Sequence record: MK327929.1
Length of the DNA: 64,000 nucleotides
Reading direction: 5' to 3' (one strand)
Source of the DNA: Escherichia phage D5505
The notes under the pieces were generated by a model that worked only from the letters and a program-made list of their open reading frames with translations, did no database searches and was not told the DNA's origin. Within the stretch, counting starts at the first letter, position 1. Every line of letters starts with the position of its first letter. This document shows positions 23,696 to 53,002 of the stretch, piece by piece. The translations under genes and the position numbers were made by a program.

Positions 23696-23749
23696 TCCTC
23701 ATGTTATGTCAGTAAGACTACTATAACACAACACGAGGGACTTGTAAAC
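23696..23749 (-). promoter_or_regulatory. early promoter + RBS cassette, copy 1 (GTTTAC -35, TATAGT -10, GAGGA SD)
   Basis: 54 bp identical to 39620-39673; -35 hexamer abuts stop of upstream alt-like gene. Confidence 0.7.
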
Positions 23750-25806
23750 TACATCTTGAACTTTTTAGACATTCCGTTGATGTTAACCAAAGAAGCTAAG
23801 ATTTGAGAAACTTCGTTTTCCTCTTCTTTTGATTCTTCTACAAGGAATTGATTAAATCCAGCCATTGGACGAACTTCACCAGTTTCCATCAAATGATCGC
23901 CATCATATACTGATTCTTCTAATTGCTCAGAAGGAGGAACGATTGTACCTTCGATTAGATACTTGTTATAAGCAGTTTCTTTCATAAAGTAAGTACTTAC
24001 TTTATTAATCTTCAGTAAAATTCCACGCGGTAGAATAACTTCAGCTTCTGATGGAAATCCTGATAAATGACCCGGAACGATAACTTTGATTCGCTCAGCT
24101 CCTTTAATTACCATACCCACGCTAGTTTCAGCATCTTCATTAGCATATGTAGAATGACTACCCATATGCATCAAATCTTCTGCATCAACGGAACCTTCTC
24201 CTTCACCAGAAAATACTGCACCGGAATCATCTAGAGCCATATAGTTTTTACCATGCTCGCCGAAGATATTTGGTTTAAGCGATGTAGATACGAAGTTCTT
24301 GAAATAGAACATTTTGTTTTCAATGTTATGACGCAAAGTTTTAAAGGTAACTTCTTGTCCGCGATAAAGCGTAGTTCCTGGAGGAAGAACTGAACCTTTA
24401 GCGAATGCAGAATCCAACGTCTCGATGTGCTTAATAGCTCGTTCCATATATTCTTCACGGGTAGAATCTGGTTTACCCAAAAGGAACGAGTTCATTTCAA
24501 CATATGAATCTGCACAATAATCTTCAATTACATCAGATTCGGCCTGAGTCAGTCCTTTTGGAGTTACTTCAGTGCTTGCGTATTCATATGCCTGGGCAGC
24601 AGATTCATTAATCAATTTATAAATGCCATTCATGACAAATTGAATAATAGCTGTCTTTTCATCTGGCGTAGCTTTAGAACCTTTAACTAAATCATTAATA
24701 ATTTTCTTAATAACATCAAAGCTATTAGAAATATTAATGTCAGCAAGATCGCTTAAAATTTTATCAGTTTTATAATCAAAGAATTCTTTATTCTTTAAAT
24801 ATTCTTGAGAACCTTGATATGTTATATCGCTCTGCAACTTGATAGATGGATCACGTAAACGTGCATGGGCCAATGCAATATGATTTCGGAAGCTTTCTAG
24901 TTCATAATCGCTAGATTTAAAACGAGAAGCACTTCTCATACCACCGATAGCTCCTTTGCTGAAGTTTGAACCAATCTGGATAACGCCAGAGTTCATTGGT
25001 CCTTCTGCTTTATATACCGGAACTTTAGATTCAAACTCTTGATATTTCTTGGCAGCGAAGCTATCACCCTGTAGCGAAGCATCGACAGTAGAATATTGAG
25101 CTTGTGCTGCTAATCGACGACTAATTTTAGTTTTTTGAATAACAGCTTGATCCGTGCGCTTATCATTTTCTAAAGCAATAGAAGCAGCAACAGCGACAGC
25201 TTTAGGAACAGCATTACCTGTTTTAACATCTACATAAACATCACCGACCTTCGATTCAACTTTTGTGAATAACTCAGTTGAAATAGGAGGTACACCTGGA
25301 ATGTCTTCTAAATTGGCATTTTTACGGTAAACCATAATATATGCATACTTTTTATCATAGTCCCAGATTTCCTTTAAAAGAACATATCGACCTGCTCCTT
25401 TAGTACGTACTAAACGGTCAGCAATAACTTGCATTTGACGAGCAGCGCCATTTGTTTTACTCTTTAGTACGCGGAATAAGCATGCATCAATTTTATACTG
25501 TTTCATTGTTTGAAGAGCAGTATCAAAAACAGCGTTAATGACGCCAATTGGATTTCCACCCAAGTTTCTAAGTTTAACCAGTGATAATTTCTCGTTGACA
25601 CCTATCATTACGATATGCATCATTTTATCGCCCGGCTTAACGTTTTTATTTGTATCACCTCCAGAGGTGTATGTACAAAATCTAAATCCAGGAAGCACGC
25701 TTTCTTCGCCGGCTTGAATAGCAAAAATTTGAGGTATTTTATGCTTAGGATTTAAGTTAACAACCGGCGCCGAAGCGCCGTCAAATAATTCTGTAATAAG
25801 TTCCAT
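23749..25806 (-). CDS. Alt-like ADP-ribosyltransferase, paralogue 2
   Basis: 685-aa ORF; N-terminal half near-collinear with the adjacent 683-aa ORF; C-terminal R (LYRGQ), STS (FVSTSL), ExE (SEAEV) ART-type motifs. Confidence 0.75.
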   Translation of the reverse strand: MELITELFDGASAPVVNLNPKHKIPQIFAIQAGEESVLPGFRFCTYTSGGDTNKNVKPGDKMMHIVMIGVNEKLSLVKLRNLGGNPIGVINAVFDTALQTMKQYKIDACLFRVLKSKTNGAARQMQVIADRLVRTKGAGRYVLLKEIWDYDKKYAYIMVYRKNANLEDIPGVPPISTELFTKVESKVGDVYVDVKTGNAVPKAVAVAASIALENDKRTDQAVIQKTKISRRLAAQAQYSTVDASLQGDSFAAKKYQEFESKVPVYKAEGPMNSGVIQIGSNFSKGAIGGMRSASRFKSSDYELESFRNHIALAHARLRDPSIKLQSDITYQGSQEYLKNKEFFDYKTDKILSDLADINISNSFDVIKKIINDLVKGSKATPDEKTAIIQFVMNGIYKLINESAAQAYEYASTEVTPKGLTQAESDVIEDYCADSYVEMNSFLLGKPDSTREEYMERAIKHIETLDSAFAKGSVLPPGTTLYRGQEVTFKTLRHNIENKMFYFKNFVSTSLKPNIFGEHGKNYMALDDSGAVFSGEGEGSVDAEDLMHMGSHSTYANEDAETSVGMVIKGAERIKVIVPGHLSGFPSEAEVILPRGILLKINKVSTYFMKETAYNKYLIEGTIVPPSEQLEESVYDGDHLMETGEVRPMAGFNQFLVEESKEEENEVSQILASLVNINGMSKKFKM

Positions 25807-32229: not shown

Positions 32230-32269
32230 GGTACAGGTATATAATATCATATCCTGTACCAAAGTAAAC
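32230..32269 (-). promoter_or_regulatory. early promoter with embedded stem-loop (GTTTAC ... GGTACAGG-loop TATTAT-CCTGTACC)
   Basis: -35 GTTTAC, 17-nt spacer, -10 TATTAT; 8-bp perfect inverted repeat flanks the -10. Confidence 0.6.
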
Positions 32270-32604: not shown

Positions 32605-32690
32605 TTTATTCTCCTTTGTTTGTGTAAGATAATACTATCACAAAGGAACCATACTGTAAACAACTTTATGCAATCTTTGGAAAATAAAAA

Positions 32691-32891: not shown

Positions 32892-33289
32892 TATAAATTC
32901 TCTTTTAAATGAAAATGCAGGACTTATTGGCATTGCCTGCGCAAGCCCTCAAGGGGAACATAGGTTTTTGGATATTTAACGACCAGGATAACCATAAACC
33001 CGTCATCATACCTTATAGCTCTTATCTGTTGCACACCGTTAGCTTAAAGGTTCCGGGTTCGATTTCTCGAGGATAAGATATATACTGATGGATATATAGG
33101 CCTTGAGGCGTACTCCCGATTGGCCATCACCTCGGGGTAGCATGCACTTGCCGCTATAAGAATAACATTCAAGAGGTACACCGTAAAACTGCCGGGGTCT
33201 TAAAACTATAATGATTCACAAATCATTAATCAGACAGTTCGACGGCTCCTCGTTTTAACTTCACACTAAGGCAGTGACTCTCCAATAAA

Positions 33290-35539: not shown

Positions 35540-35772
35540 AGTACGCCATACACCCTTTGTGCTTCAACTAATCCATCAAAATCCAATTTGAGATGTGTTA
35601 TTTGGTCACCATCACCTGGATTCACAATTACTAATACCGAACGAGGAGTTTCGGTAATAACACGAACCGACGTTTCAGGAAATCGTTCAGAAACCTTATT
35701 TACCAATTCTTGAGCAAATAGTTTAACTTTTTCTTGGAATTCTTTAACAGTAATTGGTTTTTCGCTTAGCAT
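35536..35772 (-). CDS. hypothetical protein (cd.x)
   Basis: 78-aa ORF. Confidence 0.5.
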   Translation of the reverse strand: MLSEKPITVKEFQEKVKLFAQELVNKVSERFPETSVRVITETPRSVLVIVNPGDGDQITHLKLDFDGLVEAQRVYGVL

Positions 35773-36293
35773 GTTGATCCTAGCTCCTTACTTTCAACAT
35801 TTTTAACTAATTTGACAGAAACTAATTCAGCATCTTGGGTAATCATTACCGGACCTTCTTCATGCTCTTCAAGATATTCTAGAGCTTTCTTTTTAGCTTC
35901 TTCCTTCGTATCAGTTTGAGCATAGATATAGAACATACAACCAGTAATACCTACTACTTTCCACTTAATTTCTTTATCAGTTTTAATTTCAAATTTACTT
36001 ACAGAATCATCTTTTTGAACTTCTTCGAAAAAAGAATATTCTAACATATAAGCAATTGAAAATAACGGGCTAACTTTATAGGATTCACCCATTACATCAA
36101 CAGCTTTATACCAACAATCATCAATTTCACGTTTAATGCTAATAACATTTTTCGCAGGATCTATTTTTACTTTAAATGAATTTTCCCCAATAAACTGGGC
36201 AATTCGTTTATTAGCCCCGCAAGTTTCATTAAAAATATCTTTATACCCAGTTTTAAAGCGATAAACCTTATCTTCTTCAAACCATTCGCTCAT
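35766..36293 (-). CDS. hypothetical protein (cd.x)
   Basis: 175-aa ORF. Confidence 0.5.
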   Translation of the reverse strand: MSEWFEEDKVYRFKTGYKDIFNETCGANKRIAQFIGENSFKVKIDPAKNVISIKREIDDCWYKAVDVMGESYKVSPLFSIAYMLEYSFFEEVQKDDSVSKFEIKTDKEIKWKVVGITGCMFYIYAQTDTKEEAKKKALEYLEEHEEGPVMITQDAELVSVKLVKNVESKELGSTC

Positions 36294-36314: not shown

Positions 36315-36353
36315 GGTAGAGCTATAATATCACAACTCTACCGTAAAGTAAAC
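36315..36353 (-). promoter_or_regulatory. early promoter with embedded stem-loop (GTTTAC ... GGTAGAG-loop TATTAT-CTCTACC)
   Basis: Same architecture as 32230-32269: -35 GTTTAC and 7-bp inverted repeat flanking the -10. Confidence 0.6.
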
Positions 36354-36833: not shown

Positions 36834-38241
<1,408 letters not shown>

Positions 38242-39619: not shown

Positions 39620-39673
39620 TCCTCATGTTATGTCAGTAAGACTACTATAACACAACACGAGGGACTTGTAAAC
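39620..39673 (-). promoter_or_regulatory. early promoter + RBS cassette, copy 2
   Basis: 54 bp identical to 23696-23749; -35 GTTTAC sits 3 nt after rnlA stop. Confidence 0.7.
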
Positions 39674-41291: not shown

Positions 41292-42470
41292 TTAAAAGTA
41301 TTTTTTAAAACTCATCATAACTTTATCATCAACATCATTATCAATCTGTGCAACAAGATAAGATGACAGTTCTACTTCTTGTGGTGCTGATTGAACATTA
41401 TCAGAATTAAGATATTCACGAATCCAAGGATATGGATGTTTAACCGGAGCATCGGTAATTGGGCATGGAAGACCACACTGTTTCATACGAGATACAGTTA
41501 AGTAATCAATAAAGCTCCACATGCTATTTGTATTTAATCCAGGAACATCGCCATCTTTAAATAAATGAACTGCCCAATCTTTTTCTTGGCGGTTAACTTC
41601 CATGAAAATATCAACTGCTTCTTGCTCGCACTCTTGAGCAATTTTAACCCATTCATCGCCATCAGTACCAGATTGAAGTTGACGAATAATATATTGTGTA
41701 CCTTTAAGATGAAGCTGCTCATCACGTGCAATGAACTTCATAATCTTGGCATTACCTTCCATGATTTCCATGTTTTTATGGAAGTTAAAGGTACACGCAA
41801 AGGATACATAAAAACGAATAGCTTCTAATGCATTAATAACGTGCAAACAGAGGTAAAGAGATTTCATTAGCTCACGCTTCCAATATGTCTCATGCTCAAT
41901 AGCATCTTCAATAACGTCTTCGTCTGCATTAATTTCTTTTTGGTATTCGATATCAGCTTTAGCGTTTTCCCAATAACGAGTTTTAATCAGAACATCATCA
42001 TAATAACGTCCAATGGATTCAGCACGTTTCATAATAGCTTCATCTAATACAATTTCATCAAATACCTTCGATGGATCAGTATAAAGATTTCGCATGATAT
42101 GAGTATATGAACGACTGTGAATAGTTTCACTAAAAGTCCATGTAGCAACCCATGTATCAAGGCTTGGGTCTGAAATTAATGACATAAGTACAGCAGATGG
42201 CGCGCGACCCTGAATGCTATCTAAAAGTGATTGATACTTCAAGTTGTTAGTAAAAATATTTTGCTGATACTGAGGAAGCTTATTAAACTGTGCAGCATCC
42301 ATCATCAAGTTTACTTCTTCAGGACGCCAGAAAAATGATAATTGCTTTTCGGTTAAATCTTCAAAAACTTTATGACGTTGAATATCATAACGCGCAATAC
42401 CAAGACCTGAACCAAAAAACATAGGTTCTTTTAAAACATCAACTGGATTTGTATTAAAAACTGTGCTCAT
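41292..42470 (-). CDS. nrdB: ribonucleotide reductase small subunit NrdB (intronless)
   Basis: Single uninterrupted 392-aa ORF; R2-type protein. Confidence 0.88.
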   Translation of the reverse strand: MSTVFNTNPVDVLKEPMFFGSGLGIARYDIQRHKVFEDLTEKQLSFFWRPEEVNLMMDAAQFNKLPQYQQNIFTNNLKYQSLLDSIQGRAPSAVLMSLISDPSLDTWVATWTFSETIHSRSYTHIMRNLYTDPSKVFDEIVLDEAIMKRAESIGRYYDDVLIKTRYWENAKADIEYQKEINADEDVIEDAIEHETYWKRELMKSLYLCLHVINALEAIRFYVSFACTFNFHKNMEIMEGNAKIMKFIARDEQLHLKGTQYIIRQLQSGTDGDEWVKIAQECEQEAVDIFMEVNRQEKDWAVHLFKDGDVPGLNTNSMWSFIDYLTVSRMKQCGLPCPITDAPVKHPYPWIREYLNSDNVQSAPQEVELSSYLVAQIDNDVDDKVMMSFKKYF

Positions 42471-42521
42471 AAATTTTCCGCTTAGTTAATAGTTGGTGAC
42501 TCGTCCGTGAGTCAAATTATA

Positions 42522-44786
42522 TCATAATTTACAGGATGAACAATCTTCAGCTTTTGGAGTTTCTATTTCATAATCATCAGTACCAGAACCATCGCGGGTA
42601 TTATGATAATAGAAATTTTTTCCGCCAAAATACCAAAAATACAAAAGGTCATCAATCATTATTGACATTGGAACCTTGCCTTTAGGGAAGATTTGGGGGT
42701 CATAGTATGTATTCGCCGAAGCTGATTGACAAACCCATTTCAGCATAATAGCTACCTGCGTAAGATAAGGTTTATTACCTTTCTTAGCTAATTTCCATGT
42801 ATAGTCGTAAAGGTCTATGTTATGCTCAATATTGGGCACGACTTGATTAAAGGAGCCCTCTTTTGATTCTTTAACAGAGACTGGTCCACGTGGAGGCTCG
42901 ATACCGTTTGTACTGTTAGATACCTGACTGGATGATTCGCAAGGCATCAACGCGGATAAAGTAGAATTTCTAATTCCATGCTGTTTGAGTTCAGATCGAA
43001 GTTCGTCCCAATCACAAACGTATTTTGGAGCTGCGATTTGGTCAATCTTTTTATTGTACCAGTCAATAGGTAATTCGCCTCGAGACCAACGAGTGTCTGA
43101 ATAATATTCGCAAGGTCCTTTTTCTTTGGCGAGTTTAATGGATGCTTTAATGAGTCCATACTGTAATCTCTCAAATAGTTCATGTGTTAAATCGTTAGCA
43201 TCTTCATAAGAAGCAAAGTTACTTGCCAGCCAAGCTGCATAGTTAGTAACACCTACACCGAGGTTACGACGCTTTTTAGCTTTTTCTGCTTCAGGAACTG
43301 GATATCCTTGGTAATCCAAAAGATTATCAAGAGCACGAACTTGAACTTCTGCCAATTCATTAATTTTATCTTGGTCTTGCCAGTCAAAATTATCTAGTAC
43401 GAATGCAGAGAGAGTACACAATCCAATTTCAGCATCAGGACTATTCACATCATTTGTTGGAATAGCAATTTCACAACACAAGTTACTCTGACGAATAGGC
43501 GCCTTTTCACGAATAAACGGAGTATAGTTATTCGTATTATCAATGAACTGCACATAAATCCTTGCGGTTCCTGAACGTTCAGTCATGAGCAATTCAAATA
43601 GTTCACGGGCTTTAATACGCTTTTTACGAATATTAGGGTCTTTTTCTGCTGCTTCGTATAATTCACGGAAACGGTTTTGGTCTTTAAAATAAGAATAATA
43701 AAGCTCGCCACCCATTTCATGTGGACTGAACAAAGTAATGTAATCGTTCTTTCCGAATCGTTCCATCATCAAATCATTCAGTTGAACACCATAATCCATA
43801 TGACGAATGCGGTTTTCTTCTACGCCTTTGTTATTTTTCAAAACGAGAAGATTTTCAACTTCCAAATGCCAAATAGGATAATAAGCAGTAGCAGCGCCGC
43901 CACGAATTCCGCCCTGTGAGCATGATTTAACAGCAGTCTGAAAATGTTTCCAAAAAGGAATAACACCAGTATGACGCACTTCACCCATGCCAATCTTAGA
44001 ACCTTCGGCACGAATCATACCAACGTTAATACCAATTCCAGCACGTTTGGAGATATATTCAACAATTGAAGCAGAAGCCTTATTAATAGACTTTAATGAA
44101 TCACCTGCCTCAATAACAACGCATGAACTAAACTGCCGAGTTGGAGTACGGCAACCAGCCATAATAGGAGTTGGTAATGAAATCTGTCGAGTAGATACTG
44201 CTTCATAAAAACGAATAACATGTTTTAATCTATCAACAGGTTCATCTTGATGCAATGCCATTCCAATAGTCATAAATGCAAACTGTGGAGTTTCATAAAT
44301 TTGACCAGTGGTTTTATCTTTAACTAGATATTTTTCTTTTAATTGCATCGCCCCGGAATAAGTAAATTCCATATCCCGTTCGTGCTTAATTTTTGATTCT
44401 AAAAATGTAATTTCTTCTGCTGAATATTTTGACAACAGTTCAGGGTCGTATTTACCTTCATTTACACAGTAAGAAATATGGTCAATAAATGAACGCGGTT
44501 CATACTGCCCATAAACATGCTTACGAAGAGCGAACATTAGACAACGTGCAGCTACATATTGATAATCAGGCTCTTCAACCGAAATAGAATTCGCAGCGGC
44601 CTTAATGACAATAGTCTGAATATCATCAGTTGTCATTCCATCACGGAGATAAGATTTAATATTTTCATATAATTCATAAGGATCTACTGATGTTCCCTCA
44701 GCTGCCCAAGATAAAACTTTAATAATTTTTTGTGGGTCAAAGCTCTGAGAAACACCACTACTTTTGATAACATTAATTAATTGCAT
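42522..44786 (-). CDS. nrdA: ribonucleotide reductase large subunit NrdA
   Basis: 754-aa ORF = T4 NrdA length; class Ia RNR. Confidence 0.92.
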   Translation of the reverse strand: MQLINVIKSSGVSQSFDPQKIIKVLSWAAEGTSVDPYELYENIKSYLRDGMTTDDIQTIVIKAAANSISVEEPDYQYVAARCLMFALRKHVYGQYEPRSFIDHISYCVNEGKYDPELLSKYSAEEITFLESKIKHERDMEFTYSGAMQLKEKYLVKDKTTGQIYETPQFAFMTIGMALHQDEPVDRLKHVIRFYEAVSTRQISLPTPIMAGCRTPTRQFSSCVVIEAGDSLKSINKASASIVEYISKRAGIGINVGMIRAEGSKIGMGEVRHTGVIPFWKHFQTAVKSCSQGGIRGGAATAYYPIWHLEVENLLVLKNNKGVEENRIRHMDYGVQLNDLMMERFGKNDYITLFSPHEMGGELYYSYFKDQNRFRELYEAAEKDPNIRKKRIKARELFELLMTERSGTARIYVQFIDNTNNYTPFIREKAPIRQSNLCCEIAIPTNDVNSPDAEIGLCTLSAFVLDNFDWQDQDKINELAEVQVRALDNLLDYQGYPVPEAEKAKKRRNLGVGVTNYAAWLASNFASYEDANDLTHELFERLQYGLIKASIKLAKEKGPCEYYSDTRWSRGELPIDWYNKKIDQIAAPKYVCDWDELRSELKQHGIRNSTLSALMPCESSSQVSNSTNGIEPPRGPVSVKESKEGSFNQVVPNIEHNIDLYDYTWKLAKKGNKPYLTQVAIMLKWVCQSASANTYYDPQIFPKGKVPMSIMIDDLLYFWYFGGKNFYYHNTRDGSGTDDYEIETPKAEDCSSCKL

Positions 44787-47220: not shown

Positions 47221-48249
<1,029 letters not shown>

Positions 48250-48260
48250 ATTATCTCCTA

Positions 48261-48593
48261 TTAAAAAGGATCAGGAACATATCCGCTAGCTTTAATCATT
48301 TTAATTAACGTTAACATTCCTTTGTTAACTGCTCGTGAGATTTCATCAAAAACTTCATCACTAAAAAGTTCTAACACGCCCTTCTGAACTTTTAATTTAC
48401 AGCCAACAATTTCGTCATCTCCTATAGTAAATTCGCTTCCGCCAATTCCGCCGAAAAACTTAATTACGCCAGTTAACTGTCTTCCACGAGAATATGGGTC
48501 GTGTGATAAAGTAATATGAGTCACCCCAGGTACAGTTTTAAATTGGCAGCGGATGTTTACTTGAGCAATTCCAGTTACATGAATGTCAGACAT
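48261..48593 (-). CDS. hypothetical protein (frd.x)
   Basis: 110-aa ORF. Confidence 0.5.
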   Translation of the reverse strand: MSDIHVTGIAQVNIRCQFKTVPGVTHITLSHDPYSRGRQLTGVIKFFGGIGGSEFTIGDDEIVGCKLKVQKGVLELFSDEVFDEISRAVNKGMLTLIKMIKASGYVPDPF

Positions 48594-48846: not shown

Positions 48847-48856
48847 TTTATTCTCC

Positions 48857-48925
48857 TTAGCAAGCTTTAATCAAAAGATATAAACAGACCAACATAACTG
48901 CTGCCATAATATAAGGTGCGAACAT
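48857..48925 (-). CDS. possible 22-aa hydrophobic peptide (MFAPYIMAAVMLVCLYLLIKAC)
   Basis: Hand-found; ATG 7 nt after GGAG SD, downstream of an early promoter/stem-loop; single TM-like helix. Confidence 0.35.
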   Translation of the reverse strand: MFAPYIMAAVMLVCLYLLIKAC

Positions 48926-48949: not shown

Positions 48950-48985
48950 AGGGTAATAGTATCACACTACTACCCTTCTGTAAAC
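48950..48985 (-). promoter_or_regulatory. early promoter with embedded stem-loop (GTTTAC ... AGGGTA-loop TACTAT-TACCCT)
   Basis: Third member of the GTTTAC + hairpin family. Confidence 0.55.
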
Positions 48986-50679: not shown

Positions 50680-50760
50680 TTTTATTTCCTTTTTAATTTA
50701 ATTAACAGTTGGTGCTATGACGATGTATGACCTCATAGCTGGTCAGTGAGATAATTATAA
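50680..50760 (-). promoter_or_regulatory. gene 32 translational operator (autoregulatory leader: pseudoknot region + UUAAAUUAAAAAGGAAAUAAAAAUG)
   Basis: Leader AATTAAATTAAAAAGGAAATAAAAATG directly upstream of gene 32 ATG matches the known gp32-binding A/U-rich site. Confidence 0.6.
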
Positions 50761-50778
50761 TCTATTTATAATAAGCAA

Positions 50779-52940: not shown

Positions 52941-53002
52941 ATGAACCTCGTTCAATTAGTGAGATTTCTATTATATACTATCTAAATCTTAAAGTAAACA
53001 GG

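Follow-up and report, generated by a model that had tools for sequence, protein, structure and literature searches.

The window analyzed here is a stretch of 64,000 nucleotides (nt) from Escherichia phage D5505 (sequence record MK327929.1), given as one strand and numbered from its first letter, and the elements in question are three minus-strand intergenic sites at which an early promoter carries an inverted repeat around its -10 hexamer. Genes 30.8 and 30.7 flank site 1, site 2 is found downstream of cd.3, and frd.2 and frd.1 flank site 3. Judged by sequence similarity, the window is from a Tequatrovirus, a T4-type phage: the 3-kilobase (kb) stretch around the element matches Escherichia phage 232Ecol030PP at 99.7% identity and hundreds of Tequatrovirus genomes at 95-99%, and T4 98-161.6 kb is collinear with the window at 90-97% identity. 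The three sites are laid out as follows.

Site 1, 32230..32269, minus strand: -35 GTTTAC at 32269-32264; 5′ arm GGTACAGG at 32260-32253; -10 TATTAT at 32246-32241; 3′ arm CCTGTACC at 32237-32230; predicted start at about G32234
Site 2, 36315..36353, minus strand: -35 at 36353-36348; 5′ arm GGTAGAG at 36342-36336; -10 TATTAT at 36329-36324; 3′ arm CTCTACC at 36321-36315; predicted start at A36317
Site 3, 48950..48985, minus strand: -35 at 48985-48980; 5′ arm AGGGTA at 48976-48971; -10 TACTAT at 48961-48956; 3′ arm TACCCT at 48955-48950; predicted start at A48949

The repeats are perfect over 8 base pairs (bp) at site 1 (GTTTAC-TTT-GGTACAGG-(ATATGA TATTAT ATA)-CCTGTACC, with the loop in round brackets), 7 bp at site 2 (GTTTAC-TTTAC-GGTAGAG-(TTGTGA TATTAT AG)-CTCTACC), and 6 bp at site 3 (GTTTAC-AGA-AGGGTA-(GTAGTGTGA TACTAT)-TACCCT). 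T4 is identical base for base at sites 1 and 2 and carries the same stem at site 3. These sequences are exactly as described in an earlier annotation made by a model from the letters and open reading frames, here called the sequence-only reading, which also took the sites for early promoters. Their architecture bears this out, as all three have GTTTAC-N17/18-TATTAT or TACTAT with TG at -15/-14, which is the sigma-70-like arrangement of T4-type early promoters (GTTTAC, TGn, TAnnnT), and are flanked by an A/T-rich upstream region and a downstream Shine-Dalgarno sequence and ATG; the T4 GenBank record annotates site 2 as 'early promoter Pe133295'. The same record notes that T4 133300-133313 (window 36322-36335, the site 2 loop) was earlier reported as its inverted complement. 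This 14-nt discrepancy is either an inversion or a sequencing artefact, and its limits coincide exactly with the arms.

The upstream gene's stop codon stands 2-10 nt before the -35 at these sites, and the Shine-Dalgarno sequence and ATG follow 20-35 nt after the stem. The gap from 3′ arm to Shine-Dalgarno sequence is 15, 9, and 12 nt at sites 1, 2, and 3, respectively, which leaves the latter free. At site 1, the leader sequence 15 nt past the stem is GGAT in the window, and T4 and close relatives have GGAG there; the leader of site 2 has GAGG, and that of site 3 has GGAG 12 nt past the stem. The name Pe133295 implies that transcription begins 7 nt after the -10, on base five of the 3′ arm of site 2; together with sigma-70 geometry, this leads us to infer starts at G32234, A36317, and A48949, within or just past the 3′ arm. 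Because the 5′ arm would then lie wholly in the untranscribed spacer, the promoter's own transcript could not form the hairpin, contrary to the suggestion in the sequence-only reading that the structure might act in the 5′ end of that RNA. Given these predicted starts, only RNA reading through from the upstream gene would be able to fold it.

The frequency of such repeats was assessed with a strict promoter scan of the window and of the whole T4 genome (joined from five pieces), which required GTTTAC, a spacer of 17-18 nt, and TAnnnT with at most two mismatches to TATAAT, plus either TG or at most one mismatch. Each promoter was scored by its longest perfect inverted repeat in which the loop contained the -10 and did not exceed 24 nt, and expectations were taken from 1000 within-promoter shuffles in which the -35, TG, and -10 were fixed and the other bases permuted. 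On the minus strand of the window, five of nine strict promoters have a stem of at least 6 bp, compared with 0.57 ± 0.72 expected, and none of the 1000 shuffles reached five. In T4 the count is 16/39 against 2.27 ± 1.48 expected, and stems of at least 8 bp number 8/39 against 0.17 expected, neither count being reached by any of 1000 shuffles; the longest T4 stems have 14 bp (the ipII promoter), 13 bp, and 10 bp (twice). The enrichment is positioned: when the anchor hexamer was moved in 6-nt steps along the 39 T4 promoters, 16 repeats were found at offset 0, 12 at -6, 7 at +6, and 0-4 elsewhere, so that the maximum lies exactly on the -10. Random genome positions have such repeats at a rate of 7.9%. 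As a negative control, viral contigs were scanned for the exact pattern GTTTAC-N14/15-TGATATTAT, and repeats were present in 9% of the 119 matches listed, which come mostly from unrelated contigs; the few long repeats in this set look like other T4-like phages. The sequence-only reading had counted at least three sites, had proposed a genome scan, and had named a similar frequency in shuffled sequence as an outcome that would speak against it. The shuffles give no such similarity, and the family proves much larger than three and has already been described, as the promoter-early stem-loops (PeSLs) discussed below.

One of the five repeats in the window differs from the rest in strength and setting.

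Promoter upstream of rnh, 52962..52999, minus strand: AGATTT at 52989-52984 and AAATCT at 52967-52962 around TATAAT, a weak A/T-rich repeat

In RNA this repeat reaches -2.8 kcal/mol (z = +0.93), and the T4 spacer gives p = 0.78 in the duplex test described below. The promoter stands in a divergent intergenic region and is the sole one of the five without a co-directional upstream gene; its repeat is probably due to chance.

Related loci were collected by querying with the 30.7 protein and then with an alignment of its homologues, as single-protein searches reached close relatives only and the alignment query reached other genera. This yielded 20-kb loci from 33 viral contigs, to which five GenBank phages of other genera were added (Winklervirus, Marfavirus, Karamvirus, Gelderlandvirus, and a Klebsiella phage). 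Across the 33 loci, a repeat of at least 6 bp surrounds the -10 in 40 of 103 unique promoters (5.8 expected), with stems of at least 8 bp in 29 (0.43 expected). The promoter upstream of 30.7 almost always has its -10 within a hairpin, which is kept in more than 30 loci and has at least six unrelated stems across genera, among them GGTACAGG in T4-type phages, TTTGGTACAGGT/ACCTGTACCAAA in Mosigvirus-like phages, and GGTGAGAGTCT, TGGTGTAGGAGT, TGGGTGGT.., and GCTGATTGAGTGT. PG7-like and CF-SP2-like phages have CTCCGTTGTAT...ATACAACGGAG at this promoter, where the 3′ arm is the Shine-Dalgarno sequence itself. One locus, L181, has CTCCGAGGTTT/AAACCTCGGAG in place of its relatives' CTCCGTTGTAT/ATACAACGGAG, with two pairs altered on both sides; in its group 98.4% of cells are paired, and sliding the partners lowers this to 36-62%. 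The orthologues of site 2 show GGTAGGACT/AGTCCTACC or GGTGGAGTT/AACTCTACC, or in some phages a small spacer-internal hairpin (CACCAcggaTGGTG) instead, and relatives of site 3 have AGGCTATGGTA/TACTATAGCCT, AGGGTAATGGTG/TACTATTACCCT, or ATGGGGCTAT/ATGGTCCCAT.

The unrelated stems of the 30.7 promoters are out of register across genera, so RNAalifold found no consensus structure in their alignment; stems were instead taken per sequence and pairs counted within clades. What is maintained is complementarity rather than sequence, which points to selection on RNA structure. Comparison of orthologous junctions across T4-like phages thus uncovered the compensatory changes that the sequence-only reading had proposed to look for, and its view that structure is selected over and above common descent is upheld at all three loci, where the orthologous promoters of 30.7, downstream of cd.3, and of frd.1 keep the hairpin with unrelated or compensated stems. 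The spacer-internal hairpins form a subclass overlapping TGn (CCACAaggaTGTGG, CACCAcggaTGGTG), seen at T4 2458, 50973, and 167086 and in loci L154, L156, and L157 at ~5.8-5.9 kb; the variant GCACaaggaaGTGC looks compensatory.

Several lines of evidence bear on the choice between RNA and DNA and on the strand concerned. Where a stem is perfect but for one non-Watson-Crick position, that position usually reads G·T on the sense strand. Our own reading of the listed stems, limited to interior transition mismatches with three or more flanking pairs, gives 12 G·U and 3 A·C (binomial p = 0.012, with ~48% G·U expected from base composition). At sites 2 and 3, the helix in RNA runs through the -10 via G·U pairs to 12 bp. 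RNA folding of sites 1, 2, and 3 gave -18.5, -17.2, and -18.5 kcal/mol (z = -5.65, -4.99, and -3.83), and single-stranded DNA folding gave z = -5.98, -2.35, and -2.85, so the RNA signal is the stronger one at sites 2 (-5.0 vs -2.35) and 3 (-3.8 vs -2.85). The sense RNA is also more stable than the antisense in 48 of 57 hairpin promoters, compared with a 64% background. Together, the G·U bias, z-scores, and stability favor a structure in the sense-strand RNA.

A related class with longer loops emerged from a test of whether the free part of each T4 spacer can form an RNA duplex with the 45 nt that follow the -10. Significant duplexes (p<0.05) were found in 17/39 promoters, where ~2 are expected. 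In eight of these the partner starts 1-3 nt after the -10, as at sites 1-3, and in another eight it is the next gene's Shine-Dalgarno sequence; for promoter 70696 it lies some 30 nt further downstream. Three promoters in the window represent the long-loop class.

Promoter upstream of 30.8, 32612..32661, minus strand: -35 at 32661-32656; 5′ arm TCCTTTGT at 32647-32640 in the spacer; -10 TAGTAT at 32637-32632; 3′ arm ACAAAGGA at 32619-32612 over the Shine-Dalgarno sequence
Promoter, 39621..39673, minus strand: spacer CCTCGTGTTGTGT at 39662-39650 pairs with ACATAACATGAGG at 39633-39621, which contains the Shine-Dalgarno sequence; -10 TATAGT at 39649-39644
Second copy of the 39673 promoter and leader, 23697..23749, minus strand: 5′ arm at 23738-23726; -10 at 23725-23720; 3′ arm at 23709-23697

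The T4 spacer and downstream sequence corresponding to promoter 32661 form a duplex with p = 0.023. The T4 counterparts of promoters 39673 and 23749, at 136336 and 123093, reach -15.9 kcal/mol (p = 0.007) and -15.0 kcal/mol (p = 0.003), respectively. The segments 23697-23749 and 39621-39673 are near-identical copies of a promoter plus leader, ~50 nt long and 16 kb apart, with the CCTCGTGTTGTGT/ACATAACATGAGG pairing in both. The short-loop and long-loop classes substitute for each other at the orthologous 30.7 promoter, and this interchange suggests that they do the same job. The arrangement is repeated many times in the T4 genome, with 16/39 early promoters in the short-loop class and ~8 more in the long-loop class.

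Canonical intrinsic terminators were considered as an identity for sites 1-3 and rejected, as no T-run follows the stems (tails GCAATTAA, AAAACAAA, and ATCAAAAC) and a consensus terminator scan calls none there. Such terminators do stand 14-31 nt upstream of other early promoters, as in the following two cases, where the distance is 28-31 nt.

Canonical terminator, 32711-32690, minus strand: stem and T-run, 28 nt upstream of promoter 32661
Canonical terminator, 49748-49730, minus strand: stem and T-run, upstream of early promoter 49699

In T4, a terminator lies within 110 nt upstream of 8/39 promoters, and one of these eight has a -10-enclosing repeat, compared with 3.3 expected (Fisher p = 0.07). 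By our count, most T4 early promoters have either a -10-spanning hairpin or a terminator just upstream, and ~10/39 have neither. A search of Rfam found no family anywhere in the window.

Some of the differences from T4 lie next to these promoters. Site 2 and promoter 23749 stand at insertion boundaries relative to T4, and sites 1 and 3 do not. The insertion at site 2 (window 35772-36290, 520 nt) holds a 175-amino-acid open reading frame (35766-36293) directly after the promoter and leader, so the same promoter drives different first genes in the two phages. The insertion that adjoins promoter 23749 (23769-25458, 1.7 kb) is an alt-like paralogue with ~69% similarity to part of alt. Further segments absent from T4 are 33009-33165, 37925-38239, 47221-47423, and 48020-48582, and the window is without the T4 nrdB intron with I-TevIII, the nrdB.1 and mobE segment, and segG (at 41794/41795, 42470-42526, and 50742-50778). 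Between the site 3 promoter and frd.1 lies an unannotated 22-codon hydrophobic open reading frame (48856-48924, minus strand; MFAPYIMAAVMLVCLYLLIKAC) with a GGAG Shine-Dalgarno sequence. It is identical in relatives L184 and L196, and T4 has the same leader and start codon; Mosigvirus-like relatives lack it, and there the promoter directly precedes frd.1.

The closest published counterparts are the PeSLs of phages RB49 and phi1, composite elements made up of an A/T-rich region, a sigma-70 promoter, a stem-loop, and a Shine-Dalgarno sequence (Arbiol 2010, PMC2839356). These fall into five subclasses by stem-loop position, the commonest having the stem-loop between -35 and -10 or overlapping the -10; one of the stem-loops matched rrnB T1 in lowering expression of a downstream lacZ, and mini-circles arose by recombination between PeSLs (PMC2839356). 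Later work extended the description to PST/T4 PeSLs, with the promoter consensus TTTACW-N17-TAYWAT and a location near insertions or deletions, and also covered nt-1/KVP40 (Comeau 2014, PMC4122927). Sites 1-3 share the intergenic layout of A/T-rich region, early promoter, stem-loop, Shine-Dalgarno sequence, and start codon, and fit the PST/T4 consensus; PeSLs are linked with insertions or deletions between close relatives, and site 2 lies beside one. RB49 stems are rich in G/C runs, whereas those described here are of mixed sequence, 6-8 bp long and extended to 12-13 bp in RNA by G·U pairs. The PeSL papers stress recombination and termination, without the sense-strand G·U bias, the cross-genus compensation, or the hairpin-less own transcript.

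Three other systems offer partial parallels. In the T4 genes e, soc, 49, and I-TevI, RNA initiated upstream hides the ribosome-binding site, whereas RNA from an embedded promoter does not (PMC3014915). As in those genes, the 5′ arm lies upstream of the embedded promoter's start (here a predicted one), such that only the longer upstream-initiated transcripts would fold, and the Shine-Dalgarno sequence is occluded at promoters 32661, 39673, and 23749 and at the Karamvirus-type 30.7 promoter. The known embedded promoters are late or middle, however, and sites 1-3 are early; the known 3′ arms cover the Shine-Dalgarno sequence or AUG, whereas those of sites 1-3 end 9-15 nt before it. Intrinsic terminators likewise consist of an intergenic stem-loop in RNA arriving from the upstream gene, and -10-enclosing hairpins in T4 tend to exclude upstream canonical terminators, yet sites 1-3 have no U-tract and a less G/C-rich helix. 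The promoters of the phage N4 virion RNA polymerase resemble these sites in having an inverted repeat as an integral part of an early phage promoter, but they consist of DNA extruded as a hairpin (5-7 bp stem, 3-nt loop) and serve a phage-encoded polymerase, in contrast to the standard sigma-70 -35/TGn/-10, loops of 8-23 nt (14-15 at sites 1-3), and RNA-type G·U bias found here.

The reading that best accommodates these observations, to which we assign a probability of roughly 50%, is that the sites are PeSL-type composite elements whose hairpin exists in read-through RNA only and insulates the downstream gene. Each element combines a strong sigma-70 (T4 early) promoter with complementarity between the free bases of its -35/-10 spacer and the stretch from about -6 to +2/+8. 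A polymerase starting at the embedded promoter would begin inside or just after the 3′ arm and make a transcript without the hairpin, and polymerases coming from the upstream gene would transcribe both arms, giving a read-through RNA that folds into a stable stem-loop containing the -10 sequence. The hairpin would thus mark read-through RNA alone, and most likely insulates the downstream gene from upstream transcription. At sites 1-3, the read-through RNA may be attenuated or ended, or the upstream message may acquire a protected 3′ end; in the long-loop class the Shine-Dalgarno sequence may be occluded instead. The placement of the hairpin on the -10 can be understood from the compactness of T4 intergenic regions, because the spacer and start-site region hold the only unconstrained bases.

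Several points weigh against this reading. No 5′-end, 3′-end, start-site, or terminator map of T4 was found in the searchable literature, and the sole reporter evidence for termination concerns a G/C-rich RB49 stem-loop rather than stems of the T4 type (PMC2839356). With no T-run and no terminator call at sites 1-3, canonical intrinsic termination is not expected there, and the mutual exclusion of hairpin and upstream terminator is not significant alone (p = 0.07). The early-region background already favors the sense strand (by -1.2 kcal/mol, in 64% of segments), and with this sizeable baseline the sense/antisense comparison lends weak support to an RNA structure. The orthologous sequences that were compared are non-independent observations. 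These exact -10-enclosing stems may not be among the PeSLs listed for PST/T4, as the legend in Comeau 2014 puts PST/T4 stem-loops 'just upstream' of the promoter, a position that fits the terminators at 32711-32690 and 49748-49730 better.

The alternative that survives best is post-transcriptional. According to this explanation, the hairpin protects the 3′ end of the upstream cistron after cleavage by RegB or RNase E, either within the A-rich leader or at the GGAG Shine-Dalgarno sequence, or else acts as a barrier that uncouples decay or translation of neighboring cistrons. The structure is at the RNA level and on the sense strand, no T-run follows the stems, the downstream leaders are A-rich with a GGAG Shine-Dalgarno sequence at site 3 and in T4 site 1, and early mRNAs are known to be cut by RegB at GGAG (PMC3014915), all of which such a role would accommodate. 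A protective hairpin could sit anywhere in the intergenic region, however, and protection leaves unexplained the hairpin that occludes the Shine-Dalgarno sequence at the orthologous site of other genera. We consider this explanation unlikely, though it would have the first claim after insulation.

A function in DNA appears distinctly improbable. On this view, the repeat would fold into a hairpin or cruciform when the phage DNA is supercoiled or single-stranded. It could then modulate its own promoter (melting, strength, or shut-off) or provide a hot spot for recombination that shuffles gene cassettes (the 'modular shuffling' of PeSLs). The significant single-stranded DNA fold of site 1 (z = -5.98), the positions of site 2 and promoter 23749 beside the 520-nt and 1.7-kb insertions, the site 2 loop once reported inverted in the T4 record, and the mini-circles formed by recombination between PeSLs (Arbiol 2010, PMC2839356) would all be in keeping with this. 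Against it, the non-canonical positions are mostly sense-strand G·T, which are mismatches in DNA, the DNA z-scores of sites 2 and 3 are weak, and a 6-8 bp stem carrying a loop of 14-15 nt is hard to extrude and makes a poor cruciform. Recombination between promoters requires sequence homology, not intramolecular pairing, and the long-loop class, whose loops reach ~36 nt and whose 3′ arm falls on the Shine-Dalgarno sequence, can be understood only at the RNA level. The sequence-only reading had named both DNA and RNA as options, and on this evidence DNA is the less likely of the two.

It is very improbable that the arms are operator half-sites for a dimeric phage or host protein that represses early promoters and so explains early shut-off. 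Symmetry centered on the -10, GGTA...TACC common to sites 1-3, and an early-promoter shut-off mechanism described as unresolved (PMC2988021, PMC3014915) give this proposal some appeal, but stem sequences show no relation from promoter to promoter or, at the same locus, from genus to genus, arm length (6-14 bp) and spacing (8-23 nt) vary, and the changes are compensatory rather than motif-conserving. A protein-binding palindrome was rejected since no motif is common to the arms of different promoters or genera. That the complementarity arose by chance, in intergenic DNA rich in A/T, has a negligible probability, despite 6-bp repeats at ~8% of random positions and the thermodynamic insignificance of promoter 52999, one of the five cases in the window, since the counts seen are matched in none of 1000 shuffles, the enrichment peaks on the -10, and the hairpin is kept across genera with differing stems; for sites 1-3 the shuffles, cross-genus persistence, and folding refute it.

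Both T4 early promoters and PeSLs are already published, so the finding is a rediscovery, within a group whose most thoroughly studied phage already has the elements on record, with a small gain in annotation. It is sharpened by sequence evidence for strongly selected complementarity with compensatory turnover, for a sense-strand RNA structure confined to read-through transcripts, and for alternation with a class that occludes the Shine-Dalgarno sequence. Insulation of each gene from read-through by hairpins in a very compact, strongly transcribed genome is a concrete, testable hypothesis, and it bears on how T4 limits early gene expression, the shut-off of which is still called unresolved in reviews. 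A broader and more tentative possibility is that nearly every T4-type early gene has a switch set by the origin of the transcript, in which the spacer is an anti-sequence that folds only in read-through RNA by pairing with the start-site region or Shine-Dalgarno sequence; read-through would then be silenced, and the gene's own promoter would be essentially its sole source of expression. If true, this origin-dependent switch would extend the late-gene paradigm of e, soc, and 49 to the whole early program, and it might contribute to the unexplained rapid early shut-off once the early promoters stop firing.

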